Positions 13,731-33,974 of a stretch of DNA of 49,657 bases are shown here, in pieces (position 1 is the stretch's first letter; each line of letters starts with the position of its first letter). Source of the stretch: Gaiellales bacterium. Its GTDB lineage: Bacteria > Actinomycetota > Thermoleophilia > Gaiellales > JAICJC01. The stretch is taken from contig JBQCGJ010000111.1 in assembly GCA_051955775.1 (NCBI GenBank), positions 1-49,657 on the forward strand, read 5' to 3'. The position numbers and the translations under genes are program-made. The notes under the pieces are model-generated. The model was not told where the DNA came from, did no database searches, and worked only from the letters and a program-made list of their open reading frames with translations.

Positions 13731-15533
13731 TCAGGCCAGGAGCTGCCTGGCGGCTCCGAGCTGGAGCGCGTAGCGGCCGCGGTACATCGCCGCCGGTCGC
13801 TCGATGTCGGCCACCCATTCACCCCATGACGAGGGGTCGCGCCCGAATTCCGCGTCGCCGGCGGCGATGCGCTGCTGGCGCACCGCGACCGCCTGGTCGA
13901 TGAACCATCGCAACTGGAGATCCGGCCGGTGCGCGAAACCGGGGTACTGGGCACCCCATACCGACGCCCGCATCTGGAAGTACCCGAGCGAGTCGGCGTC
14001 GCCGTACTGGTCGTTGTGCAGCCCGGACTCGACCAGGGCGGCCATCACGGGCAGCTCGGGCGGCAGCCCGTGGCGACGCGCCGCCTGGGCCATCCACTCT
14101 GCGATCTGGTGCTTGGAGGCGCCGTCGCCCGGGTAGGCCATGTGCCCCATGGCCGAGACCTGATCCACGAACTGGCCGCCGCCGACGGAGGGCACCGGCT
14201 GGGTCATGGCGCCACCCGCGGGCGGGGCCGCCTGCACCGCCTGCACGGCTGGGGTTCCCGACAGCGTCTGCGGCCCCCCGGCTGCCGCCGGCATGCCGGG
14301 CGAGGCGGGCGTGGCCGGCGCGGAACCCTGCTCGAGCGGAACGACCCGCCGGGCGGCCACGAAGTGGCCCTTGAACACGTCCACGTCGGTGATGTGCACC
14401 GAGGCGCCGGTGTGCGGCGCCTCGATCACCTTGCCGTGGCCGATGTACATCACCACGTGCTCGGCGCTGGTGCCTCCGACCCAGTTCGAGAAGATCAGAT
14501 CGCCGGGCTGGAAGTGGCCCCACTGCACCGGGGTGCCCTCCGTGACCTGGTCGTACGTCACCCGTCCCAGGTGAACCCCGGCCTGTCCATAGGCCCACTC
14601 GACCAGCCCCGAGCAGTCGAACCCCTGCGCCGGCGTATCACCGCCCCACACGTACTCGGTGCCGAGCATCCGCTTGGCAGCCGCGATCGCGGCCAGCGCT
14701 TTGGGGTTGGCCATGGCGCCGCCCGTGGTGGAGTCCACGAACGCCGGGTCGACCGTGATCCGGTGCCGATGCGCGGCCTCCGACATGAACCCGGGCGATC
14801 CGATGTGCCACGGCGTGCCGACCGCGATCGGCCGCTGGCCCGGGGGCAGCTCTGACAGCGTCTGCACCAGGTCGCGGGCAGCGATGTTGTCCGGCCCCAC
14901 CGGCCTGCCGTCCACCTGTGTGATCTCGATCCCGGTCGGGTCGACCCGCCCGATGGTGACGCGGTGGCCACCCACGTGCGTCAGCAGAGCGGCCACCCGG
15001 TCGCCCATCCCGGGGTCGGCGAGGCCGGCACGAGCGTCGGGGGAGAAGCTGAACCGGGGGTCGTCGAGGGCTGACAGCGAGGCCGCGGCGTGTGCGGGAT
15101 CGGCTGTGCTTCCCATGGTCGCGGGAACGCCGGCGAGGGCCTGCGCAGGCTGGGCGGGCGGCTCGACGACCGGCGCGGCTGCCGGGTGCGGCGCGGGCAC
15201 CGCGGGCATGCCGAGGTGGGTGTGGGCGAGATGAACGGCCTGTGCGGCCTCGCCGTGCCAGCGGGCCAGCTCGTGCTCGAAGAAGTGGGCCACCCCGATG
15301 CCCTCCGCGGCCGCCGCCAGCACGACGCCGGCCAGGCTCGACCTCGACTCGCGCACCTCCTGGGTGTACATCGCCCGCTCGGGCGCGACCTCGAACTCGC
15401 GGGCCAGCGAGTCCAGGCCGAGCGTGCGGCAGGTACCCGCCTTGTCGCGGCGAAAGGCCTCGCGCAGCCCGGGGTCGACCAGCAGCCGCTCGATCAGCTC
15501 GGCGGCCCCGGTGGTCTCGTCAGGCGCCGACAC
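13731..15533 (-). CDS. Bifunctional peptidoglycan hydrolase: NlpC/P60 endopeptidase + SLT-like lytic transglycosylase domain, no signal peptide
   Basis: NlpC/P60 core (YVWGGDTPAQGFDCSGLVEWAY...HVVMYIGHGKVIEAPHTG). The C-terminal region has a transglycosylase-like ES...GYFQM pattern (MAALVESGLHND...DSLGYFQMRASVW). The N-terminus (MSAPDETTGAAELIERLLVDPGLREAF) is not a signal peptide. The GTG start at 15531-15533 overlaps the upstream gene by 14 nt. Confidence 0.8.
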   Translation of the reverse strand: MSAPDETTGAAELIERLLVDPGLREAFRRDKAGTCRTLGLDSLAREFEVAPERAMYTQEVRESRSSLAGVVLAAAAEGIGVAHFFEHELARWHGEAAQAVHLAHTHLGMPAVPAPHPAAAPVVEPPAQPAQALAGVPATMGSTADPAHAAASLSALDDPRFSFSPDARAGLADPGMGDRVAALLTHVGGHRVTIGRVDPTGIEITQVDGRPVGPDNIAARDLVQTLSELPPGQRPIAVGTPWHIGSPGFMSEAAHRHRITVDPAFVDSTTGGAMANPKALAAIAAAKRMLGTEYVWGGDTPAQGFDCSGLVEWAYGQAGVHLGRVTYDQVTEGTPVQWGHFQPGDLIFSNWVGGTSAEHVVMYIGHGKVIEAPHTGASVHITDVDVFKGHFVAARRVVPLEQGSAPATPASPGMPAAAGGPQTLSGTPAVQAVQAAPPAGGAMTQPVPSVGGGQFVDQVSAMGHMAYPGDGASKHQIAEWMAQAARRHGLPPELPVMAALVESGLHNDQYGDADSLGYFQMRASVWGAQYPGFAHRPDLQLRWFIDQAVAVRQQRIAAGDAEFGRDPSSWGEWVADIERPAAMYRGRYALQLGAARQLLA

Positions 15534-17181
15534 GGTCCACCTCCCTGCGCGGGCGGGCCCGGCGGATCAGGGGGGCGCCCAGCACGAACATCACGGGCAC
15601 CAGGACGAGCACATCGAATGTCGCCAGCACCGCCCACGCTAGCCGTGTGGAGTGTGTTGCGGACACCAGCAGGTCGTAGTACCGGCTGGACAGGAGCATG
15701 GCCAGGCCGGCGGCGACGATCAACCAGGCGATCCCGGCCACGGCGTACACCTCGAGCACCCGTGAGTCGGACGCCTCCACCGGCTGCCCGGCCAGCCGCC
15801 GGGCCAGCCTCTCCCGGGAGCGCTTGCGCAGCCCGGGCTGGCCGAGCGTGTCGACCAGGATGTGGTAGCCATCGCGGTCCAGGAACGGGTTGAGGTTGAA
15901 CAGGCCGCCCAGGTACGCGCCCAGCGCGAGCTGGAACGCCACCTCGGCGGTGACGCCGCTGGCGAACGCCGCGACCAGGGCGAATGCGCCGCCCACGGCC
16001 GCGTCCGACACCGGGCCGGCGGCGCCGATGGCGATGCGATGCCGGCGCGGTTCGAACCAGCCCTCCGAGGTGTCCACGAAGGCGTACGGGAACACCAGCA
16101 CGACCTTGAGGCCGGCACGGGGAACTCGCCGCCCGTACGAGGCCACGGTCAGCGCGTGCGCCAGCTCGTGCACCGCCACGATCAGAAACCGTCCCAGCAC
16201 AAACACCACCGAGCCGAGCCCCAGGCTTCCGGCGACCACCAGCGGCGTGACCGACCCATCGGCGATGGCCACCACGAATCCCAGGAAGCCGACAGCCGCC
16301 AGCCCGGTCACACCGGCCCGGCCGGCGCGCGTGAACAGCAGGAATCCGCCGTGCACGTAGAGCCACTCGACCCAGTTCCCGATCCCCGGCACGACCAGGT
16401 CGCGCGGCGTGAACATCCGAGCCAGCCGGCCGCGCGGCCCTGCGGCACGGCCGCCCTCGATTCCGGCCAGCATGCCGCGGTCGCCCAGCTCGGCCAGCAG
16501 CGTGGCCAGCCGGGCCGGCCCGTCGGCTCCCAGCCGTCGCTCGGCCTCCGCCACCAGCTCGGGCAGGGCCGTCGTCCCGTCCAGCATCAGGAGCAGCTCG
16601 GCCTCCTCCTCGCCCATCCGCATGAAGTCGTTGCCCTCGAGGTCGCGAACCACGTATCGCTGCGCGCCCTCCAGCTCGTCCAGCCGTTTCAGCGCCCAGC
16701 CGGAGCGCAGGCGCGGCCGCGGGCCAAGCTCGGCCGCGGGCCCGGCCAGCGTGAGCTGGGGCCGCACGAGGGTGCTTCCGGCGCGGACGAGGATGGTCTC
16801 TCCGGCCTCCCACTGCTCCCGGTGGCGGTCGACGCGAAGCTCCGTGTCGCCGATGCGGACGGTGGTTCCGGGCCGCAGCGGCCGCTCGCCCTGGATCTGG
16901 TTGCCGTCGAGGAAGGTGCCATAGCTCGACCCGGAGTCGCTGATGCTGGCGCGTCCGTCGTGCACGACGATCCGGGCGTGCCGGCGGGAGACGCTGCGAT
17001 CGTCGAGGCTGAGGTCGTTGTCCTCGGCGCGGCCGATGGTGAGCGAATCCTCCAGGGGGATCCGCCGGCCGTCGCCCAGCACCAGCTCCAGCTGCGGCGC
17101 CTCGCCCCACCTGGGGGCGCCGCAGGTCGGGCAGAACGGGTCGTCCCGCGAAACCTGGCGGTGGCAGGTGCGGCAGATCAC
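15520..17181 (-). CDS. Zinc-ribbon / FHA-domain / M50 (site-2-protease-like) polytopic membrane metalloprotease
   Basis: - N-terminal CxxC...CxxC zinc ribbon (VICRTCHRQVSRDDPFCPTCG).
- Canonical FHA domain (LTIGRAEDNDLSLDDRSVSRRHARIV...SSYGTFLDGNQI...RIGDTEL).
- Multi-TM region with HExxH (VAVHELAHAL) and the second M50 motif (FNLNPFLDRDGYH).
- I trimmed the track ORF (to 17940) to the GTG at 17179-17181, which overlaps the upstream TGA (GTGA). Confidence 0.8.
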   Translation of the reverse strand: MICRTCHRQVSRDDPFCPTCGAPRWGEAPQLELVLGDGRRIPLEDSLTIGRAEDNDLSLDDRSVSRRHARIVVHDGRASISDSGSSYGTFLDGNQIQGERPLRPGTTVRIGDTELRVDRHREQWEAGETILVRAGSTLVRPQLTLAGPAAELGPRPRLRSGWALKRLDELEGAQRYVVRDLEGNDFMRMGEEEAELLLMLDGTTALPELVAEAERRLGADGPARLATLLAELGDRGMLAGIEGGRAAGPRGRLARMFTPRDLVVPGIGNWVEWLYVHGGFLLFTRAGRAGVTGLAAVGFLGFVVAIADGSVTPLVVAGSLGLGSVVFVLGRFLIVAVHELAHALTVASYGRRVPRAGLKVVLVFPYAFVDTSEGWFEPRRHRIAIGAAGPVSDAAVGGAFALVAAFASGVTAEVAFQLALGAYLGGLFNLNPFLDRDGYHILVDTLGQPGLRKRSRERLARRLAGQPVEASDSRVLEVYAVAGIAWLIVAAGLAMLLSSRYYDLLVSATHSTRLAWAVLATFDVLVLVPVMFVLGAPLIRRARPRREVDRVGA

Positions 17182-19622
17182 GGCGTCGAGAAGAGCGTCG
17201 GCTGGGATGCAGGGTTGGAGGCGCCGTTGGCGGTGGTCGTCAGGGTCTGCACCGCCGGCGGTGAGACCGACGGTTCGACCAGCTCGAACCCGCCGGGACT
17301 GGTTGTACACGCCGAGCTGGGCGTGACGCCCGTCGGCACCAGACTGACGACCAGTTGACCGTCCGATCGCCAGGCGACGGTGCACGCCGGAGTGCTGGTC
17401 GGGAGCGAAACCGGGCTCCAGCTCGTGATCACGTCGCCGCTCGTCTTGCCCAGGTAGACCGCGCCGCCGACGACCGCCGCCGGCCCGAGCGGGCCCCACG
17501 CGACCGACCATACCGCGTTGCCCGCCTGAGGCTGCTGGACACCCGCCGTGACCGGGTGCCAGCTGGCCTGGTTGCCTGACGACGGGATGGTGCTCGTGTA
17601 CTCGACGAGCGTCCCACCGGAGATCGCGAGGATGGCCATCCCGTCCGGCGCCCAGGCAGGCCGGTCGATCATCCATGACGACATGAACACGCAGGACGGC
17701 GAACTGCTCGCTGTGGTCAGGGAGACATCGACGAAGCACAGCTCGCCGGTGGAGCCGGTGGCGTAGGACGCGTAGGCGATGACGGAGCTCTTCGGATCGG
17801 GAGCGAAGGCCGGGCGGTGCACCTGACTGGCGCCGGCGATCTGCGTCGGCGAATTGCGGGAGGACAGGCCGACCCAGTAGAGGTTGGTGTCCGGACTGGG
17901 CCCCGCGATGAAGGCGACCTTCCGCCCGTCCCCGCTCCATGCAGGCTCAGTCGCCTGGGCGACCCCTGGCGCAAGAGGCTTCGGCGTGCCGCCGAGCGCA
18001 GGCTGCGTGGAAAGCACACCGCCGGAGTCGTACGCCAGCAGCGGATTCCCGGCAGAGACCTGAAGCTCGACGACCTGGCCCTTGGGAACCGTGCCGGACG
18101 GCTGGATCTTGATGACCGTGTTCGGTTTCTTGTGGCTGAGAACAAGCGTTTCGTGGTACGGGATGCCCGCACTCGTCAGCGCGGCGATCGCCGCCGCGGC
18201 CGACGCCCCCGCTGCCGCCGCCGCCGGCACCTTCGCGCTTCCGCCGCTCCCGCCGCCGCCGCTGACCGTGGTCTTTCCAGCCAGGAAGGCGACGATGGTC
18301 GTGCCCTTCGGAACCTGCGTCCCGGGCGCCTGCTGCTGGCACTTGGTTGCACGGATCTTGTCCGTCGTGCTCGTTGCGGGCGGGTTGGTGGACAGCGTCA
18401 GCGTCGTGGGCAGCGCCTTGTTCGCCGCTGCGATGGTGTCGTTGCAGAGACTCGGGACGGCCACGGTGTTCGGGCTCGTGCGCACGTACAGCGTGACCTG
18501 GCTGCCGCTCTTGACCGAGGCGTTTCCCGCGGGATCGGTGCGGCGCACAGTGCCCGGCTGGCCGTGGCGAGACGGCTTGAGGTTGACGAGCGCGACCTTG
18601 AACCCCTTCTGCTGGAGCTGAGCCTGGGCGAGCTTCGCCTGCTCCCCGGCAACCGGCGGCACCGTCACGTAGCGCGGCCACAGCTTGTACCCGACGATGC
18701 CGAGCGCGATGGCGATCACGGCTGCCGCCGGCACCCAGGTCGGGATCCGCGGCCGCTGCCGGAAGGTGCCCTCCACCACCACCTCGCCGGTATCCGATCC
18801 GACGGGGGTGCCCACCAGCTCGAACCGGTGGTCGACAGGCTTGCCGAACCACGGCCGCTTGACGGCCCGCACGCGCACCACCGTCGTCGACTCCCGGCCC
18901 GGGCGGACGCCGGTGCGCTGCCGCTCGAACTTGAACCGGCACTGCTGGTTCTCGTCAGAGCCCTCCCATTCCACCTCCACGGGGGCGTTCCCGGTGTTCG
19001 TGGCGGCCGCGGCGAAGCGCGCGGAGCGCCGCCCCGAGGCCGTCTTCGGCCGCAGCTCGCCGGTCAGCTCGGAATACGGCGGCACGGTCAGCGTCAGCCG
19101 GGCGGAGGCGATGTCCTGCCCGCTGCTCTGGGAGCGGGCGACCACCGTCACCTCCCAGCTGCGCGACTCGCGTCCGTCCCGAGTGGGGTGGAACCGCACC
19201 TGCACGTCCTTCTCCCACCCCCCGACCGGAGCGCCGAACTGGAGCAGGTCGATCGCCTCCGGCGCCACCGTCGCCCAGCCCTCGGGCAGGCCCTGGACGC
19301 GCAGGTCATACCGGTCGACCTTGCCGCTCTGGTTGCGGATCGAGCAGATCAGCATGGCTTCGCCGCCCGGCTCGACCGTCACCTCCGGGTCGCCGGCGCC
19401 GACCTCCTCGTCATCCGGCTCGCGCAGCGTCATCAGCACCGGATCCGGCCGCCGCGTGGGCGGGGCGGGCATGACCCTCGTTCGCGTGCTTTCGTCCGCC
19501 GCCTGGCCCCGGCGAACGGCAGGCACTTCCCGTGTCGGATCCCACCGCAGGTACTCGTGGCAGTTCTCGCACGAGTCCCGGTCCTCCGGGTTCTGGTGCC
19601 CGCAGAACGGGCAGATCTTCAT
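17178..19622 (-). CDS. Zinc-ribbon / cytoplasmic Ig-like region / single TM / 3x PASTA / PD40 (TolB-like) beta-propeller membrane protein
   Basis: - Zinc ribbon: MKICPFCGHQNPEDRDSCENCHEYL.
- About 300 aa of cytoplasmic beta-rich region.
- TM helix: IPTWVPAAAVIAIALGIVGYKLW.
- Three PASTA-like units: VTVPPVAGEQAKLAQAQLQQKGFKV...VTLYV; VAVPSLCNDTIAAANKAL...; AAIAALTSAGIPYHETLV...VELQVS.
- WSPDG-type PD40 repeats: EPAWSGDGRKVAF, RPAWAPDGMAILAI, TVAWRSDGQLVV.
- The ATG overlaps the gpI-like stop (ATGA at 19619-19622). Confidence 0.8.
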   Translation of the reverse strand: MKICPFCGHQNPEDRDSCENCHEYLRWDPTREVPAVRRGQAADESTRTRVMPAPPTRRPDPVLMTLREPDDEEVGAGDPEVTVEPGGEAMLICSIRNQSGKVDRYDLRVQGLPEGWATVAPEAIDLLQFGAPVGGWEKDVQVRFHPTRDGRESRSWEVTVVARSQSSGQDIASARLTLTVPPYSELTGELRPKTASGRRSARFAAAATNTGNAPVEVEWEGSDENQQCRFKFERQRTGVRPGRESTTVVRVRAVKRPWFGKPVDHRFELVGTPVGSDTGEVVVEGTFRQRPRIPTWVPAAAVIAIALGIVGYKLWPRYVTVPPVAGEQAKLAQAQLQQKGFKVALVNLKPSRHGQPGTVRRTDPAGNASVKSGSQVTLYVRTSPNTVAVPSLCNDTIAAANKALPTTLTLSTNPPATSTTDKIRATKCQQQAPGTQVPKGTTIVAFLAGKTTVSGGGGSGGSAKVPAAAAAGASAAAAIAALTSAGIPYHETLVLSHKKPNTVIKIQPSGTVPKGQVVELQVSAGNPLLAYDSGGVLSTQPALGGTPKPLAPGVAQATEPAWSGDGRKVAFIAGPSPDTNLYWVGLSSRNSPTQIAGASQVHRPAFAPDPKSSVIAYASYATGSTGELCFVDVSLTTASSSPSCVFMSSWMIDRPAWAPDGMAILAISGGTLVEYTSTIPSSGNQASWHPVTAGVQQPQAGNAVWSVAWGPLGPAAVVGGAVYLGKTSGDVITSWSPVSLPTSTPACTVAWRSDGQLVVSLVPTGVTPSSACTTSPGGFELVEPSVSPPAVQTLTTTANGASNPASQPTLFSTP

Positions 19623-20287
19623 GTCGGGTCCTCGGCGGGCGCCGGCGGCTGCTTCACGCGCAGCTTGTAGGGCACACCCACCGGCTTCAGGCGATCGATG
19701 GTGTGCGCGACCTTCGCCTGTTCGGCCGTCGGCAGCGGGGCATCGCAGTAGACGATGAACTCACGCTTTGCCTTGCCGCGGCCCGCCGGGTCGCCGGCCC
19801 ACACCACGGCGCCGTTGTCGACCACACGCAGCGGCAGCTCGGGGTAAATCAACCGCAGCGCCAGCTCCATCCCCGCCCGCGTGCCCCGCCTGCGTGCCAG
19901 CTCCGGCGCGTTCCTGACCAGCTGCCGGCGGCGTTCGACCGGCCACGACTCGTCGACCTCCAGGCCGAGCCAGCGGGCTATCAGGCCCACCATTGCTGAC
20001 GGCGCCATCTCCGGCACGAGATGTGACGGCAGGCAGTCGAGCACCGCGACGACGGGGTCGAGCACCTCCTCCAGTCCACCCACCAGGGCCAGCCCGAACG
20101 CCGGGCCGCGTCCGCGCGCCGGCTGCACCCGGTCGGGGTCGGTGTACATCGAGGGCAGCCCTGCCCGCAGGTACCCGCGCGCGCTGGCGGTGGGCGGGCT
20201 CCAGCGCAGCTCGGGCTCGGGCGGCGCCTCCGGCGCGGCAGCCGCGATGGCCGCCACGGTCAGCACGGACGTCTGCGGCTCGTCCAC
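19619..20287 (-). CDS. Phage tail protein I-like baseplate wedge protein (Afp12 / gpI equivalent)
   Basis: LPSMYTDPD...LVGGLEEVLDPVVAVLDCLPSHLVPEMAPSAMVGLIARWLGLEVDESWPVERRRQLVRNAPELARRRGTRAGMELALRLIY matches the P2 gpI-family pattern. It sits directly after the gpJ-like gene. Confidence 0.8.
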   Translation of the reverse strand: MDEPQTSVLTVAAIAAAAPEAPPEPELRWSPPTASARGYLRAGLPSMYTDPDRVQPARGRGPAFGLALVGGLEEVLDPVVAVLDCLPSHLVPEMAPSAMVGLIARWLGLEVDESWPVERRRQLVRNAPELARRRGTRAGMELALRLIYPELPLRVVDNGAVVWAGDPAGRGKAKREFIVYCDAPLPTAEQAKVAHTIDRLKPVGVPYKLRVKQPPAPAEDPT

Positions 20288-20290
20288 AGC

Positions 20291-22288: not shown

Positions 22289-22689
22289 GCCAGCTCCTCC
22301 TCCGGGATCATGTAGAACGGAAACACGAGGTTCCGGGCGTCGTTGGTCGCTCGCAGCACGTAGCCGATATCGATCAGAAGACGCATTCCGGAGTCGCTGT
22401 CTTCATCGACCTCGAATTGGATGCCGGTGACGTCGATACGGGGCTCCCAGCGTTCCAGCGCGACCCTGATCTCGTGCTCGATCTGACCCACGGTGTAGCC
22501 GTCTATACCGCCGAACAGATGGTCGTGGATCCCGCAGCCGAACTCCGGCCGCATCGGCCGCTCGCCGCGGGCGGTGCCCAGGATCAAGGCGATCGCCTCC
22601 TGGACGTCCTCGTCGTCTCGCACCAGCTCGATCACGCCGCGGCGGTCGAGCCGAAGCGGGAATCCCAGGCCTGATCCGATGTGCTCCAC
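22285..22689 (-). CDS. GPW/gp25-family baseplate wedge protein (Afp9 equivalent)
   Basis: GSGLGFPLRLDRRG...EDVQEAIALILGTARGERPMRPEFGCGIHDHLF is the canonical gp25 / lysozyme-like motif. Confidence 0.9.
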   Translation of the reverse strand: MEHIGSGLGFPLRLDRRGVIELVRDDEDVQEAIALILGTARGERPMRPEFGCGIHDHLFGGIDGYTVGQIEHEIRVALERWEPRIDVTGIQFEVDEDSDSGMRLLIDIGYVLRATNDARNLVFPFYMIPEEELA

Positions 22690-25017: not shown

Positions 25018-25018
25018 G

Positions 25019-25474
25019 TCAGCTCCCTGCGAACCCTTCGTGGGCGATCTCGAGTGTCTCCGAGGCGGCGTTGGAGGACGCGGCGTTCAGCGTCGGCCCC
25101 TGCCACTTGACGGGGAACGCGGCGTCGAACGACCACGACCGCACCGTCTGCCCGTCTGGCCCGTTGAGCGACACCGTCACCGTGCCGCGGCTGTCCGGCG
25201 CCTGCGAGGCGTTGAACCAGTCCAGCAGCGCGGTCTGGTGGGTCACACCGCGCTTCAGCACCAGGTTCGGGTAGGTCAGACGGCCCGGCAGCTTGCGCGT
25301 GAACGTGTTCAGGCCGCCCTCCTGGTAGGTCTCGACCTCCCGCTCCACCGAGATCCCGCTGCACTCCGAGAACAGGCCGATCGACCCCTGGATGCCGTCC
25401 GCCTGGACGAGGAAGGACAGCTCGCCGACGGGATCGGGCGACGCGCCGGCTATGGGATCACGGTCACTCGCCAT
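25019..25474 (-). CDS. Tail-tube-like protein (tube initiator, Afp5 equivalent)
   Basis: gp19/Afp1-like pattern: FLVQADGIQGSIGLFSECSGISVEREVETYQEGGLN...PNLVLKRGVT...FPVKWQGPTLNAASSNAASETLEIAHEG. The start is set at the ATG at 25472-25474, which is preceded by GGGGAGG. Confidence 0.85.
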   Translation of the reverse strand: MASDRDPIAGASPDPVGELSFLVQADGIQGSIGLFSECSGISVEREVETYQEGGLNTFTRKLPGRLTYPNLVLKRGVTHQTALLDWFNASQAPDSRGTVTVSLNGPDGQTVRSWSFDAAFPVKWQGPTLNAASSNAASETLEIAHEGFAGS

Positions 25475-25490
25475 CAGCTTTGCCTCCCCT

Positions 25491-27419: not shown

Positions 27420-27577
27420 TCCGTGGGCGCCCGAAGGGCGGACAGGTTGGTGGTGTGCGCCAGAAACCGGCGCCGGTCAGCGTGCTGGAGGTCGAGGATC
27501 GATTCCAGCGGCCAGTGCAGGTGATACGCCAGGACGGCCGTCTCCTCGAACAGCTCATCGAGGGACGGCCGCGTCAT
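27416..27577 (-). CDS. Small conserved CIS-associated protein (about 53 aa; DUF6760-like)
   Basis: MTRPSLDELFEETAVLAYHLHWPLESILDLQHADRRRFLAHTTNLSALRAPTE. The ATG at 27575-27577 overlaps the upstream TGA (ATGA). The family name is from memory of small proteins in actinobacterial tail-like clusters and is tentative. Confidence 0.5.
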   Translation of the reverse strand: MTRPSLDELFEETAVLAYHLHWPLESILDLQHADRRRFLAHTTNLSALRAPTE

Positions 27578-27963: not shown

Positions 27964-27974
27964 CGTCCCCCCAC

Positions 27975-28415
27975 CTACATCCGGGTCAGGCCCTCGTGGC
28001 AGATCTGCACCTCTTCGACTGCCACCTCATTGCCCGACGCGTTCAGCGAGGCGCCCGTGTACTTGATCGGCCACCCCTGGTCGAACGCCCACGTGGCGAT
28101 CACCGAGCCGGTGTAGTCGATCAGGGCGACGCTGCCGTCGACCCGGGCGCTGTCCGGGCCCTCGTTGATCACGACCTCGCGCCACTTCCACACGTCGAGC
28201 GACTCGTCCACTCCGCGCTTCAGCGTGATGTTCGACCACTTTGTCGCGCCCGGCACCTTGCGGATGGTCTGGCGACCGTTCTCGTCCACCGAGTGCTGCT
28301 CGATCACGGTCGTCTCGGAGTCCAGCCCCGAGCACTCCCGGAACATGCCGACGCCCTCGTGACCCTGAAGGTCGAGGCGGAAGTGGATGGACGGCCGCGG
28401 CTGCTTGGTTGGCAT
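27975..28415 (-). CDS. Tail tube protein (Afp1 / T4 gp19-like)
   Basis: FRLDLQGHEGVGMFRECSGLDSETTVIEQHSV...KWSNITLKRGVDESLDVWKW...GWPIKYTGASLNASGNEVAVEEVQICHEG is the canonical eCIS tube pattern. An AAGGAG Shine-Dalgarno sequence lies upstream. Confidence 0.9.
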   Translation of the reverse strand: MPTKQPRPSIHFRLDLQGHEGVGMFRECSGLDSETTVIEQHSVDENGRQTIRKVPGATKWSNITLKRGVDESLDVWKWREVVINEGPDSARVDGSVALIDYTGSVIATWAFDQGWPIKYTGASLNASGNEVAVEEVQICHEGLTRM

Positions 28416-28443
28416 CTATGCGCTCCTTTCGGTCAACGGCGGG

Positions 28444-30021
28444 TCAGGACACCTCGGAGGCGCCCGCCGCGAACTGGCTGATCCGGAAGATCACGAACTC
28501 CGCCGGCTTGACCGGCGCGATCCCGATCTCCATCACGACCTGCCCGGCCTCGATCACGTCCGTTGGGTTGGTCTCGGCATCGCACTTGACGTAGAACGCC
28601 TGCTCGGGCGTGGCCCCGAACAGGGCGCCACCCCGCCATGTGCGGGTGAGGAAGCTGCCCACGGCGATCCGCAGGCGGATCCACAGGCGCTCGTCGTTGG
28701 GCTCGAACACGGCCCATTGCGTGCCCTCGAGGATCGACTCCGAGATGTAGTTGAACAGCCGGCGCACGTTCAGGTAGCGCCACTCGGGGTCGCTCGACAG
28801 GGTGCGCGCGCCCCACACACGGATGCCGCGCCCGCGGAACGCGCGGATGCAATTGATGCCGGCCGTGTTGAGGCTGCCCTGCTCCTCGTGGGTGACCTGG
28901 AAGCCCAGGCCGATGGGGCCCATCACGACCTCGTTGGCCGGCGCCTTGTGCACGCCCCGGGTGTCGTCGCTGCGCGCCCACACGCCCGCCATGTGACCGG
29001 ACGGGGGCACCATCATCGGATCGCCGGTGAGCGGGTCCATGACCTCCAGCCACGGGTAGTAGAGGGTGGCGAACTTGGAGTCCAGCGGGCCGCTCTGGCG
29101 CCACTCCAGCACCTCCTGAGGGCTCAGCCCAGGCGGCGGGTCGAGGATCGCGACCCGGTCCTTGGCCGCCTCGCAGTGGCTGATCATCTTGCCCTGCAGG
29201 TCGCGCAGCTGCGCATCCGCCTTGCCGCCGCCGTTGCCGGCCGCGAGCAGGGTCATGAGATCGGGAGCGCACAGCATCGTGATCTCGTCCACGGCGGCCA
29301 GGCTGCCCAGGCCCTCGCGGCGCGCCACGTCCCCCTCGAACTCGCCCGCCTCCACCTCCTCGGGTACGGCCGGCGGCGCCGTCAGGGTGTACGACCCCGG
29401 CCGCGGCCGCAGCTCCGGGAGCGACGACGAGGTGTCCTCAATCGTGATCAGCTTGGAGGCCGCGTTGACCTTGGTGACGATGTTCGAGCGTCCCTTCTTG
29501 AGCGACAGGCCGTCGAACTCCTCGCGCTGCGCGCCGCAGCTGACGACCATGCGATAGGTCGGGGTGGGCGGCTCGCCGCCGTCCCCGCCGCCCTCGCCGT
29601 CGCCCTCCTCCTCCTGGAGCTCGACGGTCACCGCGCCCTCCACGCCCGTCTGGGCAACGGCCCGCAGGGCCTCGTCGGCGCCGTCGCCGGCCGCGGCCGG
29701 CAGCACGGCCCTGGGTGGCACCGGCTCGCCTCCGCCGCCCACACGCACCACGTAACACAGGCCGCCGCCGTTCTGGAAGTAGCCGTACACGGCGTGCGCC
29801 AGGTAGGCGCCGGACATGAACGGCCCATGCTCCGGGTCGTCGGGATGGGAGAAGGTGCGGACGAACTGCGTCCAGTTCGGGATCATGACCGGCTTGTTGA
29901 CCGGCCCGTAGGGCGCCAGCCCGATGAACGCGGCGGTGGACGTGCCCACGCCCTCGATCGGCTTGGACTGCGATGGGACCTCCTCGACGTATACGCCGGG
30001 AGTCAGGTATGAGGTTGCCAT
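28444..30021 (-). CDS. Contractile tail sheath protein (Afp2-4 / Cis2 equivalent)
   Basis: MATSYLTPGVYVEEVPS...GVGTSTAAFIG is the hallmark sheath N-terminus. The C-terminal domain reads NCIRAFRGRGIRVWGARTLS...WRYLNVRRLFNYI. Confidence 0.95.
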   Translation of the reverse strand: MATSYLTPGVYVEEVPSQSKPIEGVGTSTAAFIGLAPYGPVNKPVMIPNWTQFVRTFSHPDDPEHGPFMSGAYLAHAVYGYFQNGGGLCYVVRVGGGGEPVPPRAVLPAAAGDGADEALRAVAQTGVEGAVTVELQEEEGDGEGGGDGGEPPTPTYRMVVSCGAQREEFDGLSLKKGRSNIVTKVNAASKLITIEDTSSSLPELRPRPGSYTLTAPPAVPEEVEAGEFEGDVARREGLGSLAAVDEITMLCAPDLMTLLAAGNGGGKADAQLRDLQGKMISHCEAAKDRVAILDPPPGLSPQEVLEWRQSGPLDSKFATLYYPWLEVMDPLTGDPMMVPPSGHMAGVWARSDDTRGVHKAPANEVVMGPIGLGFQVTHEEQGSLNTAGINCIRAFRGRGIRVWGARTLSSDPEWRYLNVRRLFNYISESILEGTQWAVFEPNDERLWIRLRIAVGSFLTRTWRGGALFGATPEQAFYVKCDAETNPTDVIEAGQVVMEIGIAPVKPAEFVIFRISQFAAGASEVS

Positions 30022-30022
30022 G

Positions 30023-30397
30023 TCACGCTCCCTTGAGACTTTTCGGTTGCAGCTCGTCGAGCAGCGCGTCGCGCCCTCCCGAGCGGACGGTCCGCGGCCA
30101 CGCGGCCCCCTGGTCGAACACGCGCATCTCGCTCTCGTCAGGCGCCAGCAGGATCAGCTTGGTGTCCGGCGCGGCCTGCCTGACGAGGCCGCTGAGTTGA
30201 TGCGTGGAGCCGCTCAGGCCGAGCACGACCGCGTCCGGCCCCAACGCGCGCACATGCTCGACGATCGCGCTCTGCTGACCGTCGGTCGTGACCACGTCCA
30301 CGCCCTGCTCGACCAGCACCTTGGACATCCCCAGCGAGAGCAGAGGCCCGAGGTTGCCGAGCAGGACGCATCGTGCACGCTCGTCACGACCCATCAT
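30023..30397 (-). CDS. Small hypothetical protein, receiver-fold-like but lacking acceptor residues (tentative)
   Basis: About 124 aa from the ATGATG at 30397. The alternating beta/alpha pattern (RCVLLGNLGPLLSLGMSKVLVEQGVDVVTTDGQQSAIVEHVRALGPDAVVLGLSGS...TKLILLAPDE) resembles a CheY-like fold, with Gly where the acceptor Asp would be. Its stop is 1 nt from the sheath start. The longer track ORF (to 30835) overlaps the cap gene and was rejected. Confidence 0.45.
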   Translation of the reverse strand: MMGRDERARCVLLGNLGPLLSLGMSKVLVEQGVDVVTTDGQQSAIVEHVRALGPDAVVLGLSGSTHQLSGLVRQAAPDTKLILLAPDESEMRVFDQGAAWPRTVRSGGRDALLDELQPKSLKGA

Positions 30398-30480
30398 CGC
30401 GCAGCAGTCTGCGACCCCCGGGGCGTGCGCCGCCAGGTCTCCGGGACAGCCGTTTGGGAGAATCGGGATGCCCGAATCGT

Positions 30481-31368
30481 TCAGCCGCGCGACCGCGGCC
30501 GGCGGGCGGCGGCGGCCAGCACCAGGTCGATCCCCGCGCCCGGCACCTCGAGCGGGGCCTCGGCGGAGGTGCCGTCCACCCCCCTGGCCTGGCAGCGATG
30601 GCGGCCGGGCGGCACATTGGGGAAGCGGAACCGGCCGTCGGCGCCGGTGACCGCCACCAGCCCGAGCTCGGGCAGGGCGACCCATGCCCCGGCGGCCGGA
30701 CTTCCGTCGCCGGCGGCAACGGTGCCGCCCACACCGTGCGACTCCTCGATGGTGGAGCGGACATCCCGGTCGCGGATGCGAGCAGTCCGCGTGCGCACCT
30801 GCGGGCCGCGCGCGATCTCGCCGCCGGCGGCGCACGTCAGCGTCACCACGTAGTCCAGCGATGCCTTGTACTGGCCGCCCACAGCGGACCAGAAATCAGC
30901 CTTGCCGTCGGCCCGGCGCTGGGCGACGCGGCCGGTCACGGGGAACGGCTGGGAGCCGTTTCGAAGCGTCCCGGCCAGCATCGCCTGCGGCAGCTCGGCG
31001 TGCGCGTACAGCACACCCAGCACCTGAGACAGCAGCCGGTGCTCGTCCTCCACCGCCCGCGTCCAGGCGGTCACGGCGTAGCAGGCGTCCAGCCGCAGCG
31101 GCGGGCGCACCTCGTGCACCCGCCCATCGCGCACGAAGGCGTCCCACTCGACCACCCGCTGATCCTCGGCCTCGTGCACATCGAACAGGAAGATGTTCAC
31201 GGTGGGCGTGGACAGCGAGGCCGCCCAGTCCTTGGTGGGGGCGTCGAACACGATGTCCACACCGTCGAATCCATGCGCCGACAGCTCCCCGCGCAGCAGT
31301 CCCCGCAGCGACTCGTCGAGGTCGGCGAGCATGGTGTTCAGCGGCACCGAGATGACGGTGGTGGCCAT
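30481..31368 (-). CDS. DUF4255 / Pvc16_N-type tail terminator (cap; Afp16 equivalent) with C-terminal carboxypeptidase-regulatory-like beta domain
   Basis: MATTVISVPLNTMLADLDESLRGLLRGEL...VDIVFDAPTKDW...PTVNIFLFDVHE...LDACYAVTAW matches the DUF4255 pattern. The C-terminus GTVAAGDGSPAAGAWVALPELGLVAVTGADGRFRFPNVPPGRH is CarboxypepD_reg-like. The start is set at the ATG at 31366-31368. Confidence 0.85.
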   Translation of the reverse strand: MATTVISVPLNTMLADLDESLRGLLRGELSAHGFDGVDIVFDAPTKDWAASLSTPTVNIFLFDVHEAEDQRVVEWDAFVRDGRVHEVRPPLRLDACYAVTAWTRAVEDEHRLLSQVLGVLYAHAELPQAMLAGTLRNGSQPFPVTGRVAQRRADGKADFWSAVGGQYKASLDYVVTLTCAAGGEIARGPQVRTRTARIRDRDVRSTIEESHGVGGTVAAGDGSPAAGAWVALPELGLVAVTGADGRFRFPNVPPGRHRCQARGVDGTSAEAPLEVPGAGIDLVLAAAARRPRSRG

Positions 31369-31447
31369 GTGCCCGATTATCACCGCGGCTGCACGGGGCG
31401 AAACAGGCAGACAACCGGGCAACGTGGTTGCCCGAACAGCCGAGGGC

Positions 31448-33463
31448 TCAGGCGCCTGCGCCGTCCGCCGGCGGGCGGATGGAGGCGTGGAACTGCTCGA
31501 ACTCCGTCTCCAGGGTGAGCCGGCCCAGCTTTCCGTACTCGAGCGCGACGCCGCGCACCAGGTGGCGCATCGCGATCGGCGCCTGCTCCTCGGCGGCCAT
31601 GAACGCTGCGGCCACCGCGGCGTTGCGGATCCCGCCGCCCGCCAGCTTGAACTGCCCGGCCAGGAACCCCAGATCGACGTCGTCCGCGACCGGCGCCTCG
31701 GACGGCAGCACGCGGCGCCAGATGCGCCCCCGGTGCTCCTCCTCGGGAAACGGGAAGTCGATCACGAAGTCGAGCCGGCGCAGGAAGGCGTCGTCCAGGT
31801 TCTGGCGGAAGTTGGTGGCCAGGATCACCGCGCCGGCGTACCCCTCCATCTTCTGCAGCAGGTAGGCGACCTCGATGTTGGCGTACCGGTCGTGCGAGTC
31901 CCGGACCTCGCTGCGTTTGCCGAACAGGACGTCCGCCTCGTCGAAGAACAGGATGGCGTTGGAGCCCTCGGCGGCGCCGAAGATGCGGTCGAGGTTCTTC
32001 TCGGTCTCCCCGATGTACTTGGACACGATGGTGGCCAGGTCGACCCGGAACAGGTCGAGCCCCAGCTCGCGCGCGAGCACCTGGGCCGCCATCGTCTTGC
32101 CGGTGCCCGACTCGCCGGCGAACAGCACCTTGAGACCCTGGTCGGGGGACACCGTGCGGTCATAGCCCCACGCCGACAGCACCAGGTCGCGGTGGCGCAG
32201 GTACGAGGAGATGGATCCCAGCACGGCGCGCTGCCGCGCCGGCAGCACGAGGTCGTCCCAGGAGTAGGCCGGCTCGAGATGCGCGGCCAGCTCGCCCAGC
32301 CGCCCGCTGGATGCCCGCCGGGCGCCCAGGTCGAGGTCGAGCGCGGACGGCGCCTCGGCTCCCCGCGCCCGTGCCTCCAGCACCGCCACCTCCGCGCCCT
32401 GCGCGATCTGCTCCAGCGACAGCCGGAACTTGGCGGCCACGTCGCCGGCGTCGGCCGCGCCGGTCAGCGACTCCCAGGCCCGGCGCCGCTGATCGACCGA
32501 CGGCAGGCTCGTCTCGACGGTCAGCAGCGTGCCGTCGGAGAGTGTCGCGGACAGGACGCGGTCGGCCGTGCACACGACGGGCCGTTCGACCCGTTCGGCC
32601 ACCCTGCGGAAGGCCCGCCGGCGGTCGCCGGGGTCGGCGATGTGCTCGAACCCCTCGAACGCGAGCAGGCGGTCATCCAGCGCTGCCCACAGGATCAGGT
32701 CCGACAACTGCGTCCCGTCCGCGGCCTGGTCGGCGCGGGCCAGGAGCAGCGGGCGGCCGGCCGCGACAGCCGTCAGCGGGGCGGCGTCCGGGCCGGCCAC
32801 CACCAGCGGCAGCGCCCGCGCCGAGACCAGCAGCGAGCCGATCCGAGCCACCGTGTCGGGGCGGTCGTCGGGGGCCGCCGAGGCCGTGACCACGCGTGCC
32901 GCGCGGTCGGCCCCCGGGTTGTGCAGCGGCCCGCCGACCAGCCGTGAGGCCAGCCGGTCCGCCACCTTCACCGGCCTGTCGGCGAGCGGGGTCGTGTCGG
33001 CGCCCAGCAGGTCGATCGCGCCCCGCCGCCGCAGCGCGGCATCGTGCGCGAAGCGGGCCATGACCAGATCCATGCCGCCGTCGCCGTCGCCGTCGGCGAG
33101 CAGGCGGGCGGCCAGCCGAGGGCTGATCAGGGTACGCGTGACGTCGTCGTGCAGATACGCGATCAGCCGCCCCAGCCGGGGTGAAAGCTCGGGTGCGGCG
33201 CACAACGCCAGCACGTCCGTGTCCAGGTCGTCGAGCCCCAGCGCGCCGGCGGCCGCGGCGATGCGCGCATCCTCACCGCCGCCGAGCGGAGTCTGGCCGG
33301 CCCAGGAGCGCGCCTGGTCGTCCGTGATGTAGAGGCCCCGGAAGGGATCGACCGGGTTGGGGTCGGTGCGGGCCACCCCTTCCACCACCTCGCGGACGCG
33401 GGCCTGCAGCCGCCCGTACACCCCGGGCGGTACCGCGGACACGAGGTCAGCCGGAGAGCTCAT
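31448..33463 (-). CDS. CIS AAA+ ATPase (Afp15 equivalent)
   Basis: The C-terminal AAA+ module has Walker A (GESGTGKTMAAQVLA), Walker B (ILFFDEAD), sensor/arginine regions (ILATNFRQNLDDAFLRRLDFVIDFPFP) and a long N-terminal domain, as in eCIS ATPases. Confidence 0.9.
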   Translation of the reverse strand: MSSPADLVSAVPPGVYGRLQARVREVVEGVARTDPNPVDPFRGLYITDDQARSWAGQTPLGGGEDARIAAAAGALGLDDLDTDVLALCAAPELSPRLGRLIAYLHDDVTRTLISPRLAARLLADGDGDGGMDLVMARFAHDAALRRRGAIDLLGADTTPLADRPVKVADRLASRLVGGPLHNPGADRAARVVTASAAPDDRPDTVARIGSLLVSARALPLVVAGPDAAPLTAVAAGRPLLLARADQAADGTQLSDLILWAALDDRLLAFEGFEHIADPGDRRRAFRRVAERVERPVVCTADRVLSATLSDGTLLTVETSLPSVDQRRRAWESLTGAADAGDVAAKFRLSLEQIAQGAEVAVLEARARGAEAPSALDLDLGARRASSGRLGELAAHLEPAYSWDDLVLPARQRAVLGSISSYLRHRDLVLSAWGYDRTVSPDQGLKVLFAGESGTGKTMAAQVLARELGLDLFRVDLATIVSKYIGETEKNLDRIFGAAEGSNAILFFDEADVLFGKRSEVRDSHDRYANIEVAYLLQKMEGYAGAVILATNFRQNLDDAFLRRLDFVIDFPFPEEEHRGRIWRRVLPSEAPVADDVDLGFLAGQFKLAGGGIRNAAVAAAFMAAEEQAPIAMRHLVRGVALEYGKLGRLTLETEFEQFHASIRPPADGAGA

Positions 33464-33974
33464 CCGCGGCGTGCTCCGCCTCGAGCTCCAGCGCGTCGCC
33501 CGGCTGCGAGGCGGTCAGCGGCTCGGACGGCGCCGCCCCTCGCTGCTGCACCACGTGGGCGGCCTCGTGGGCGATCAGGCGATCGCCCTCGGCGGTGCCG
33601 GGGCGGTACTCACCGTGCGCGAAGTACATGTCGCTGCCGACGGTGAACGCCCGTGCGGAGACCGACCTGGCGAGCTGGTCGGCGCCGTCTCCGGTGTGCA
33701 CTCGGGCATCGTCGAGCGGGTCTCCCAGCCCGTCCGCGAGCGACCCGCGCAGCCGCGGCTGCAGCGGCGACCCGCCACCCCGCGTGGCCGCGTTCATCGA
33801 GGCCACGCCCGGGTGCACCACGCCGCTGGGGAGCAGGCCGGCGCCGTCCGCCAGCCAACCGGCGAACGCACGGTTGCCGGCGGCGGACGCCACATCCGCC
33901 ACACCGGCCGCATCCTCCACCACCGGCTCGGCCGGCGCGTGCTCCTGCAGTCGCTCCCGATCGAACTCCGGCAT
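33447..33974 (-). CDS. DUF4157-domain protein (HExxH zincin-like), stand-alone
   Basis: LQPRLRGSLADGLGDPLDDARVHTGDGADQLARSVSARAFTVGSDMYFAHGEY...GDRLIAHEAAHVVQQ is the DUF4157 core. The start is set at the ATG at 33972-33974, preceded by GGAGGG. Its 3' end overlaps the ATPase start by 17 nt. Confidence 0.75.
   Translation of the reverse strand: MPEFDRERLQEHAPAEPVVEDAAGVADVASAAGNRAFAGWLADGAGLLPSGVVHPGVASMNAATRGGGSPLQPRLRGSLADGLGDPLDDARVHTGDGADQLARSVSARAFTVGSDMYFAHGEYRPGTAEGDRLIAHEAAHVVQQRGAAPSEPLTASQPGDALELEAEHAADELSG

Follow-up and report, generated by a model that had tools for sequence, protein, structure and literature searches.

The stretch of DNA analyzed here (the window) is an entire 49,657-bp contig from a metagenome-assembled genome (MAG) of the Gaiellales (Thermoleophilia, Actinomycetota), an uncultured soil actinobacterium, and has a G+C content of ~71%. 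From position 33974 down to 13731 it carries 18 co-directional genes, all on the minus strand, which form a tightly coupled operon. This region is almost certainly a complete contractile injection system (CIS) operon of subtype IId, the lineage of Streptomyces CIS-Sc. Fifteen of the 18 genes supply every structural and assembly part of a CIS. The last three encode a bitopic membrane protein with PASTA repeats, an intramembrane metalloprotease of the M50 family fused to an FHA domain, and a peptidoglycan hydrolase. Translational coupling links them to the baseplate genes, alongside which they are conserved in Thermoleophilia, and this triad is very probably a functional part of the system. The mechanism that we favor is that of a cytoplasmic CIS whose firing is probably gated by cell-wall sensing and phospho-signaling, and which would kill by autolysis.

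Genes were called from frame-specific third-position GC (GC3), the open reading frame (ORF) listing and start-codon context, and domain identities were taken from Pfam, NCBIfam and PHROG profile searches of the called genes (Table 1). The parts supplied are a DUF4157 protein, an AAA+ ATPase, a cap, a sheath, a tube, two chaperone-type proteins, a protein in the tape-measure position, two tube initiators, a VgrG spike and the gp25-gpJ-gpI wedge. This gene list and its order had been proposed from the translations in an earlier reading of the locus (the original prediction), and each proposed identity was borne out by the profile matches. In the profile hidden Markov model (HMM) searches the sheath, tube, gp25, gpJ and VgrG families were all significant, with Pfam matches exceeding the gathering scores, and gpJ scored 421 bits against NCBIfam TIGR02243 (cut-off 156). 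Genes specific to extracellular CIS (eCIS) were also present, namely the Afp15-type ATPase (AAA+WHD), the Afp16/Pvc16 cap (Pvc16_N) and the DUF4157 protein (eCIS_core). For the cap and a small protein that had been listed without a function, the identities stood and the coordinates were refined to 30481-31368 and 30023-30397 (124 amino acids), respectively. All operon ORFs are intact. The junctions had been described as six 4-nt overlaps and two longer ones, and all were exact when read from the sequence: ATGA overlaps at 27574-27577, 27416-27419, 24316-24319 and 19619-19622, GTGA overlaps at 22285-22288 and 17178-17181, and overlaps of 14 nt at 15520-15533 and 17 nt at 33447-33463. Two of the 4-nt overlaps connect gpI with the bitopic gene and the bitopic gene with FHA-M50, and the 14-nt overlap connects FHA-M50 with the hydrolase gene. 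The remaining intergenic gaps are 1-83 nt, therefore leaving no space for a hidden gene. The NCBI names of these proteins are generic ("putative baseplate assembly protein", "FHA domain-containing protein"). Scanning the two ends of the operon for promoters and terminators gave nothing informative, and an exact look-up of the sheath protein returned no match.

Comparison with PDB chains was made for five components (sheath, cap, spike, gpJ and gpI), and for all five the nearest structure was a CIS from S. coelicolor or S. venezuelae. The sheath matched the Streptomyces sheaths 8bky/8bl4 over its full length (E 1e-165), gpJ matched Cis11 in 9gtp (E 2e-134, residues 1-660, 41% identity in the alignment), the spike matched 9gtr (E 3e-49), and gpI matched chain E of 9gtp (2e-13). 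The match of the cap to Cis16 in 9gts (E 1e-32) covered residues 13-200 only. Afp, PVC and AlgoCIS chains scored far lower. The Afp and Pvc sheaths reached only ~1e-47 to 1e-53, and the window sheath gave ~165-185 bits against Afp/PVC/AlgoCIS but 555 bits against Streptomyces. Furthermore, 80 loci were obtained when GTDB genomes were scanned with an alignment of gpJ, and the core synteny was kept throughout. gpJ identity was 47-58% for loci of Solirubrobacterales, Miltoncostaeaceae and others of the Thermoleophilia type, and 38-43% for loci of Streptomyces, Micromonospora, Pseudonocardiales, Acidimicrobiia, Chloroflexota and Dormibacterota. The IId placement is based on these PDB matches and gpJ identities. 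The lineage is common in soil metagenomes (>1,800 gpJ clusters and >1,400 FHA-M50 clusters) and has at least one cultured carrier, Miltoncostaea oceani (CP064356, locus L082).

The closest known systems are S. lividans SLP and Streptomyces CIS-Sc (SCO4242-4260; PMC10066040, PMC10020575), the latter being the type example of subtype IId (PMC12237407). CIS-Sc and the window have the same gene order, from DUF4157 through ATPase, cap, sheath, tube, chaperones, P/A-rich protein, Cis1b, Cis7, Cis8, Cis9 and Cis11 to Cis12. Common to both are the lack of an Afp13 fibre and of ClpV, the C-terminal motif of the tape-measure-position protein, and, in the fibre slot, a gene for a Zn-ribbon membrane protein that is bitopic and N-in. 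CIS-Sc has been described as lacking an Afp13 fibre, a typical Afp14 tape measure and ClpV, with PAAR found in S. venezuelae alone (Casu 2023, PMC10066040). The original prediction had placed the locus in the fibre-less, cytoplasmic class of Streptomyces. The class holds by sequence and layout, and "cytoplasmic" is here taken from relatedness. It had also stated that no fibre or PAAR gene follows the spike. These domains are indeed absent from the operon products (Pfam, PHROG) and from other window ORFs, but the fibre slot is occupied by a membrane protein which that reading left uninterpreted. Afp, PVC and AlgoCIS have the core parts in common with the window (equivalents of Afp1-9, 11, 12 and 14-16); the window differs from them in its single sheath gene and in lacking an Afp13 fibre, PAAR and an Afp17/18-type toxin. 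IId CIS and their cytoplasmic mode are known already, and the window core is an ordinary, well-conserved member of this group.

What sets the window apart lies mainly downstream of the baseplate genes. Two cytoplasmic immunoglobulin (Ig)-like domains, the FHA-M50 protease and the peptidoglycan hydrolase with its N-domain are found in the window and not in Streptomyces loci. Where the CisA ectodomain of CIS-Sc is F5/8-type-C or NADase_transloc-like, the window has PASTA repeats and a beta-propeller instead. The window also differs from CIS-Sc in the extra Ig-like domain of its cap and in its host, which belongs to a Thermoleophilia lineage not known to be filamentous. Between cap and sheath, Streptomyces carries genes of the Sco4256-4258/Sle1 type, whereas the window has only a 124-amino-acid gene product without a transmembrane (TM) helix or coiled coil. 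No Sco4256-4258/Sle1 effector gene was found in this slot of the window, a result obtained without comparing the Sco4256 sequence itself. A Sle1/Sle2-type effector pair was also rejected, as no coiled-coil gene lies beside the DUF4157 gene and the synteny differs.

The bitopic protein overlaps gpI by 4 nt and thus occupies the tail-fibre slot. From the N-terminus it consists of a Zn ribbon (aa 3-26, with the conserved signature CGEYLRW[DE]PT), a disordered linker and two cytoplasmic Ig-like domains (aa ~60-292), followed by a TM helix (aa 296-314), extracellular PASTA repeats and a PD40/TolB-like beta-propeller. NCBIfam matched PknB_PASTA_kin over aa 300-523 (2e-20) and a TolB propeller (7e-6). 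The ectodomain thus aligns to the TM-plus-PASTA part of PknB/Stk1 PASTA kinases, but the kinase domain is lacking. An AlphaFold2 (AF2) model had a mean predicted local distance difference test (pLDDT) value of 84, and >88 for aa 60-292, and Foldseek matched it to Ig tandems of the ASH/CEP192 type. As a word-indexed homologue search with the N-terminal 315 aa gave 6 matches only, profiles were built from fetched loci instead. With these, the Ig and TM region was found to be homologous (hhalign E 1e-40) to a CIS-linked bitopic family found in IId loci of Pseudonocardiales, Mycobacteriales, Dormibacterota and Chloroflexota.

In Streptomyces, CisA is encoded directly after cis12 and is needed for in-situ contraction and stress-induced death (PMC12237407, PMC10020575). 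It is an N-in bitopic protein with one or more Zn ribbons, a TM helix at aa ~285-310 and an ectodomain of carbohydrate-binding type, and its partner is only predicted (PMC12237407). The window protein is parallel to CisA in architecture and slot (N-in, Zn ribbon, TM, ectodomain), and the two align over the Zn ribbon only (23 columns, hhalign E 9e-7). No match to an HMM of the CisA C-domain was found in the window or in any Thermoleophilia-type locus. The bitopic protein was rejected as a true CisA homologue, the Zn ribbon alone being common to both. A role in membrane docking and sensing is slightly favored for it. Both the bitopic protein and the protease were observed to start with a similar Zn ribbon (C-x2-C-x10-12-C-x2-C…RW), and Streptomyces CisA proteins also have one or two such ribbons. 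A CxxC motif also ends the chaperone-like protein, and the ribbon may be a shared docking handle.

The second gene of the triad encodes a Zn ribbon, an FHA domain, a linker and a membrane domain of about five helices. In NCBIfam the protease region (aa 173-506) matched a daptide_HExxH intramembrane metalloprotease (4e-36), and the FHA domain matched models of the TagH/FhaB type (VI_FHA/TagH, 2e-10). Thirty homologues were found to have invariant residues throughout, namely the four Cys, the phosphothreonine-binding G50 R51 and S65 R66 x H68 of the FHA domain, H338, E339 and H342 (HExxH), and N429-x-N-P-x3-R-D-G438. The hallmarks of M50/site-2 proteases (HExxH, NxxPxxxxDG) are therefore intact, and PF02163 was precomputed for most homologues. 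An AF2 model (pLDDT 82) had its FHA fold confirmed by Foldseek. Site-2 and leader metalloproteases of ribosomally synthesized and post-translationally modified peptides (RiPPs), such as the daptide MpaP-type and YydH/LiaK, have HExxH and NxxPxxxxDG in common with the window protein. Compared with the daptide-type proteases, it adds the N-terminal Zn ribbon and the FHA domain. A phospho-gated proteolytic step is conceivable on this basis, and we put it forward tentatively.

The third gene encodes a hydrolase which has no signal peptide. It is made up of a conserved leader-like N-domain of ~85 aa, an NlpC/P60 endopeptidase (aa 291-395, with PDB matches down to 4e-20) and a C-terminal module, likewise conserved (aa ~466-600). 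The N-domain is partly hydrophobic, has the consensus LIERLLVDPxFRxxFRRDPxxAC…TLExRESKSSLAGVxMAAAxEG and received no assignment in Pfam or PDB searches. Related loci contained it 25 times, in almost every case in the gene directly after FHA-M50, and it is fused there to NlpC/P60, CHAP, M23 or unassigned domains. This combination of a constant N-domain with varying catalytic domains is the pattern of polymorphic effectors, and the chance that the hydrolase is a delivered or activated lethal effector seems to fall just short of even. The C-terminal module has an ES…GYFQM motif and a match to a PHROG tape measure protein (TMP) family at aa 496-529; with this motif and short match alone, a proven lytic transglycosylase was rejected. 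Two loci (L022, L026) have two N-domain genes each, the second copy lying further downstream. In L083:11637-16562 and L084, a 1641-aa hydrolase behind FHA-M50 contains the N-domain, CHAP, NlpC/P60 and three C-terminal modules.

The distribution of these genes was examined with local HMMs run on 84 loci and the window, and with further contig look-ups. The Thermoleophilia-type loci of the GTDB scan contained the two-Ig bitopic protein in 23 cases, FHA-M50 in 20, the hydrolase N-domain in 19 and the CisA C-domain in none. Three loci fetched via FHA-M50 homologues (L082-84) all had the bitopic protein, FHA-M50 and the N-domain (3/3 each), and again no CisA C-domain. In the 23 loci and these three, the bitopic gene follows gpI. 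FHA-M50 homologues selected solely for the length of their contigs (4.1 Mb in a MAG, 2.5 Mb, and the chromosome of Miltoncostaea oceani, CP064356) in each case lay immediately behind the gene for the PASTA protein in a CIS locus. Streptomyces loci had none of the three genes, and the CisA C-domain was present in every one with enough sequence downstream of gpI. Among the other Actinomycetota and Dormibacterota, 10 loci had a separate two-Ig gene, and these 10 also had the CisA C-domain, which was found in further loci as well; FHA-M50 and the N-domain were absent. Chloroflexota loci had the two-Ig module and, in some cases, an FHA domain only, with no N-domain and no CisA C-domain. Altogether the CisA C-domain was found in ~40 loci outside the Thermoleophilia type, and the two-Ig membrane module is present in IId loci of Actinomycetota, Chloroflexota and Dormibacterota. 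In the 10 non-Streptomyces actinomycete and Dormibacterota loci (L030, L040, L047, L053, L055, L059, L062, L072, L079 and L081), the CisA-type gene stands after cis12, and the separate two-Ig gene, with a variable ectodomain, lies a few kb away.

The Chloroflexota loci share the two-Ig bitopic module with the window, and the Anaerolineae fuse it to kinase and FHA domains; they lack the M50 protease and the N-domain hydrolase, and their gpJ is 38-41% identical to that of the window. In two Anaerolineae loci (L031:13087-16245, L066:12994-15981) a single protein with kinase, FHA, two Ig domains, TM and ectodomain is encoded right after gpI, and a third (L057:9988-11421) encodes an FHA-2xIg-TM-SH3 protein. 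These fusions tie kinase and FHA signaling to the Ig-domain membrane module. Their ectodomains vary (TSP3, PLAT, SH3) and their genes lie in or next to the fibre slot. Another Chloroflexota locus, L034, has three tandem two-Ig paralogues. Published Chloroflexota-Deinococcota IId CIS, such as that of Roseiflexus, belong to the same IId lineage and have no close cisA homologue; the Roseiflexus particles are intracellular and unanchored (PMC12998442).

In the window itself, an operon at 34091-41124 diverges from the CIS operon, 117 bp upstream of it, and encodes two membrane Ser/Thr kinases and a PASTA protein (Table 1). Orthologues of kinase 1 adjoin at least eight CIS loci (L010, L011, L015, L017, L018, L025, L083/84), with 54-92% identity in the kinase domain (60% over the full length in L018) as against 41-58% for kinase 2. 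A kinase was also found beside the locus on contig P0002. By its sequence and position, kinase 1 is a candidate signaling partner of the FHA protein.

PASTA repeats serve in muropeptide and lipid II sensing in PknB-type kinases, and Hanks kinases together with FHA domains carry out phospho-threonine signaling. The following mechanism is proposed. Given the relatedness to CIS-Sc and the Roseiflexus CIS, cytoplasmic assembly is the default assumption, and by analogy with these systems particles would assemble free in the cytoplasm. The bitopic protein would take on the job of CisA, its Zn ribbon and two Ig-like domains docking the baseplate at the membrane and its PASTA repeats and beta-propeller reporting the state of the cell wall. 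An FHA domain implies phospho-threonine as input, and the conserved neighboring kinase would be its simplest source; one or more of the membrane Ser/Thr kinases would phosphorylate a threonine which the FHA domain reads, thereby gating the metalloprotease. Two candidate substrates follow from the genes encoded on either side of the protease: the N-in/C-out bitopic anchor and the hydrolase, with its leader-like hydrophobic N-domain. Of the two, we favor cleavage of the N-domain. The protease is of the RiPP-leader-peptidase type, a class which cuts TM or leader segments of N-in substrates. The hydrolase has no export signal and needs a route to the wall, which CIS firing at the membrane would give. 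Firing against or through the membrane would let it reach the wall, and the producer would lyse. The outcome would be regulated cell death after envelope damage. Lysis has been proposed to come from envelope-targeting effectors released on contraction (Casu 2023, PMC10066040), and delivery of the hydrolase by CIS firing would, by analogy, fit this proposal for CIS-Sc-dependent lysis.

Several observations weigh against this mechanism. The likeness to CisA is a 23-column match over a Zn ribbon, and Zn ribbons are common. The M50 Pfam score of the window protease is 22.8 bits (gathering cut-off 27.2), its daptide-protease NCBIfam score is 125 bits (cut-off 300), and Foldseek on the FHA-M50 model gave FHA domains only, with no site-2 protease structure for the membrane part. 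With ectodomain and protease scores below the curated cut-offs, neither protein is therefore a member of those named families. The RiPP-leader likeness of the hydrolase N-domain is sub-threshold (NHLP Os1348 E 0.002, Frankia_peptide E 4e-4), and its C-terminal module has no family assignment in Pfam or PDB. Fewer than half of the loci were seen to have an adjoining kinase, its position varies, and the fetched flanks are limited; Pfam scans found no PP2C phosphatase domain in the window. Finally, to our knowledge Gaiellales and Solirubrobacterales are not filamentous or multicellular, which makes the rationale of altruistic death, as applied to Streptomyces, less obvious. The gated, cytoplasmic mechanism was nevertheless ranked above a released tailocin, an outward-firing weapon like a type VI secretion system (T6SS) and an unrelated cell-wall module.

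The first of these, a conventional extracellular, tailocin-like CIS released by lysis, is unlikely. In this case the hydrolase would be an analogue of an endolysin, and the membrane proteins would time lysis without docking or triggering the particle. Most members of the eCIS superfamily, which includes the core, are extracellular, the hydrolase resembles endolysins in having no signal peptide, and NlpC/P60 domains of this kind occur in phage tail and lysis proteins (PHROG). However, no fibre or receptor-binding protein is encoded, leaving a released particle without evident target binding, and no holin-like small membrane protein was found. Moreover, the slot in which the bitopic gene overlaps gpI is taken in Streptomyces by a gene needed for contraction, and the nearest relatives with in-situ data, Streptomyces and Roseiflexus, act from the cytoplasm (PMC10066040; PMC12998442).

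A similarly low probability was given to a membrane-anchored, outward-firing system resembling a monoderm T6SS. Here the bitopic and FHA-M50 proteins would be the dock, kinase-to-FHA phosphorylation would license assembly or firing, and the polymorphic hydrolases would be antibacterial effectors fired into neighboring cells. Phosphorylation through PpkA and Fha1 licenses the Pseudomonas H1-T6SS, and peptidoglycan hydrolases are classic T6SS effectors. The kinase and FHA protein beside a contractile machine mirror this threonine-phosphorylation pathway, the VI_FHA/TagH match of the FHA domain points the same way, and the constant N-domain with variable peptidoglycan-hydrolase domains, in two copies in two loci, would suit a set of effectors. 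A membrane Ser/Thr kinase and an FHA protein accompany a contractile machine in both the window and the PpkA-PppA-Fha1/TagH pathway of P. aeruginosa, but the window core is not a T6SS, the window has no PP2C, and the intramembrane protease to which its FHA domain is joined is without a counterpart in the T6SS. The original prediction had held that this is not a T6SS, which was borne out: no contig gene had a Pfam match to TssB/C, TssM/L/J, TssK or ClpV. Furthermore, there is no TssJLM-like trans-envelope complex and no immunity-like gene evident beside the hydrolase, the sheath and baseplate are orthologous to the free-floating CIS-Sc, and a particle of ~100-250 nm would need to fire through a thick Gram-positive wall.

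It is quite improbable that the triad and the kinases form a cell-wall homeostasis module of their own which merely neighbors the CIS. For cell-wall growth, actinobacteria have a standard toolkit of PASTA, FHA, Ser/Thr kinase and NlpC/P60 proteins (PknB, FhaA/FhaB, RipA), and the kinase positions vary between loci. Against such a module stand the start/stop overlaps with gpI and among the genes, and the order after gpI, which is kept from 78% down to ~47% gpJ identity. In addition, every FHA-M50 homologue with inspected context lies in a CIS locus, and the Ig module recurs in IId loci of four phyla and is fused to FHA or kinase domains in Chloroflexota. A decaying tail module of a myovirus prophage is effectively ruled out: all core genes are of phage-tail ancestry, but neither capsid, portal, terminase and integrase genes (Pfam scans of called genes and leftover candidate ORFs across the whole contig, upholding the earlier verdict on this point) nor a lysis cassette or repressor are present in the contig, the eCIS-specific DUF4157, Afp15-type ATPase and Pvc16 cap are, the ORFs are intact with coupled junctions, and the locus is conserved in hundreds of metagenomic relatives. 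The prophage and T6SS readings were thus rejected, their defining genes being absent.

Two questions on cytoplasmic IId CIS are which signal fires them and what kills the cell. Streptomyces CIS effectors are small membrane proteins of unclear action, and CisA is needed for firing (PMC12237407, PMC10066040). The Thermoleophilia variant places domains of known ligands and chemistry in those slots, which makes the trigger and kill steps testable. It also defines two CIS-associated modules, the cytoplasmic two-Ig membrane module and the ~85-aa hydrolase N-domain. In the searchable open-access papers and preprints on CIS, no account was found of the accessory genes of Thermoleophilia or, among them, of the FHA-M50 protease, the two-Ig module and the hydrolase N-domain, and the same literature contained nothing relevant linking CIS with FHA, PASTA, M50, kinase or Thermoleophilia. 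The accessory genes discussed in the Streptomyces studies are CisA/Sco4242 and Sco4256-4258 only (Vladimirov 2023, PMC10020575; Casu 2023/2025, PMC10066040, PMC12237407). Taken as a whole, we consider it doubtful, yet worth stating, that in unicellular soil Thermoleophilia a self-directed or T6SS-like injector, with a PASTA/propeller sensor, a Hanks kinase, an FHA-gated protease and a payload of polymorphic, leader-bearing hydrolases, would convert wall damage into firing and autolysis. If true, a cytoplasmic CIS would for the first time have a defined signal pathway, and abortive or altruistic lysis would have a counterpart based on a contractile machine outside filamentous bacteria.

Table 1. 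Genes of the CIS operon, in transcription order, and neighboring signaling and regulatory genes of the window.
Feature	Coordinates	Strand	Evidence and remarks
Small DUF4157/eCIS-core protein, 175 aa	33447..33974	-	Pfam eCIS_core E 5e-26; first gene of the operon
AAA+ ATPase with N-terminal winged helix, Afp15/Cis15-type assembly ATPase	31448..33463	-	Pfam AAA 8e-26, WHD 7e-18
Cap/tail terminator Cis16 (Pvc16_N = DUF4255)	30481..31368	-	Pfam 3e-33
124-aa protein, no family	30023..30397	-	B12-binding-like trace E 0.05 only
Contractile sheath Cis2, single gene	28444..30021	-	Pfam Phage_sheath_1 + 1C (2e-19, 4e-17)
Inner tube Cis1a, gp19 family	27975..28415	-	Pfam Phage_T4_gp19 1e-33
Tail-assembly-chaperone-like protein, 129 aa	27574..27963	-	PHROG 508 tail assembly chaperone 8e-11
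DUF6760 small protein, 53 aa	27416..27577	-	Pfam DUF6760 5e-6; ATGA overlaps on both sides
P/A-rich 642-aa protein, tape-measure position	25491..27419	-	No family match
Tube initiator Cis1b/Afp5, second gp19-family protein	25019..25474	-	Pfam Phage_T4_gp19 5e-36
Spike hub/tube initiator Cis7/Afp7, C-terminal LysM	24316..25017	-	Pfam CIS_tube 1e-24
VgrG-like spike Cis8 (gpD + gp5 OB + beta-helix)	22697..24319	-	Pfam Phage_GPD 5e-10, Phage_base_V 9e-26
gp25 sheath initiator Cis9	22285..22689	-	Pfam GPW_gp25 2e-25
Baseplate wedge gpJ Cis11	20291..22288	-	Pfam Baseplate_J 2e-15; NCBIfam TIGR02243 8e-126
Baseplate wedge gpI Cis12	19619..20287	-	Pfam Tail_P2_I 4e-10
Bitopic membrane protein, 814 aa	17178..19622	-	Pfam PASTA 1e-16, PD40 1e-4, DZR
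Zn-ribbon-FHA-M50 intramembrane metalloprotease, 553 aa, ~5 TM helices	15520..17181	-	Pfam FHA 4e-18, Peptidase_M50 6e-5
Peptidoglycan hydrolase, 600 aa, no signal peptide	13731..15533	-	Pfam NlpC_P60 5e-22
Membrane Ser/Thr kinase 1 (kinase, TM, ~310-aa ectodomain)	34091..36268	+	Pfam Pkinase 3e-46
Membrane Ser/Thr kinase 2, paralogue	36283..38544	+	Pfam Pkinase 4e-44; TM aa ~330 of trimmed protein
Bitopic TM-NHL-propeller-PASTA protein, last gene of the kinase operon	38545..41124	+	Pfam PASTA 1e-30 (two stretches), NHL; TM aa 121-139
LuxR-type response regulator	12662..13327	-	Pfam GerE 3e-13, Response_reg 1e-7; 400 bp downstream, co-directional

Among the core genes, the DUF4157 protein contains an HExxH-like AHEAAH motif, and its 3' end gives rise to the 17-nt overlap with the ATPase start. 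Its homologues adjoin the ATPase in L011, L019, L021, L022 and L026, and the AAA+WHD architecture of the ATPase is identical in contig P0002. The cap has an extra C-terminal CarboxypepD_reg domain, which is Ig-like (transthyretin-like; Pfam 9e-9). This domain is missing from the solved S. coelicolor Cis16 (225 aa) and is also found in P0002 and L001. The 124-aa gene is conserved only in Thermoleophilia-type loci (tblastn 41-47% identity in L002, L003, L006, L010, L013, L018, L023 and L025). Its product has a flavodoxin- or receiver-like sequence pattern and sits where Streptomyces encodes the Sco4256-4258 or Sle1-Sle2 effectors.

The chaperone-like protein has 51-72% identity across all IId loci, Streptomyces included, and carries a C-terminal Zn-ribbon-like CxxC motif; the DUF6760 protein is likewise conserved across IId loci. 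The LysM of the Cis7/Afp7-type protein is weak (E 0.017, residues 184-229) and is also called in relatives. The P/A-rich protein has a conserved C-terminal helix motif (…YERVVDRLRRELMTERERMGDLLGDLP). Positional counterparts of 465-1399 aa were found in most of the ~50 loci compared, Streptomyces included, and share a C-terminal end of ~30 aa (…RLRxEL..[DE]RER.G…). Judged by this shared sequence, it is a genuine conserved component, though the Streptomyces papers report a typical tape measure to be absent. As a proven tape measure it was rejected, having no helical TMP signature and no family match.

The LuxR-type regulator downstream of the operon has orthologues (48-58% identity) beside three CIS loci (L010, L018, L025) and is, on this sequence evidence, a candidate regulator of the locus. 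A terminator-like hairpin follows the gene (12605-12591), and more distant orthologues flank IId loci of other phyla. An ECF-type sigma factor (41173-42048, minus strand) follows the kinase operon, and an ECF sigma factor was also seen near L083/84. The flanks inside the window (13.7 kb and 15.7 kb) hold cellular genes only, including LtrA, oxidoreductases, a GDE-like glycosidase, kinases and a sigma factor. At 45204-46387 (plus strand), a STAS protein is followed by an HTH+HATPase_c_2 protein; the pair resembles a partner-switching anti-sigma system and has no evident CIS link. The left flank (5419-8629, minus strand; 8557-10920, plus strand) contains envelope and carbohydrate genes, which encode a Wzy_C/O-antigen-ligase-like membrane protein, an NHL-repeat protein and a GDE-type glycoside hydrolase.

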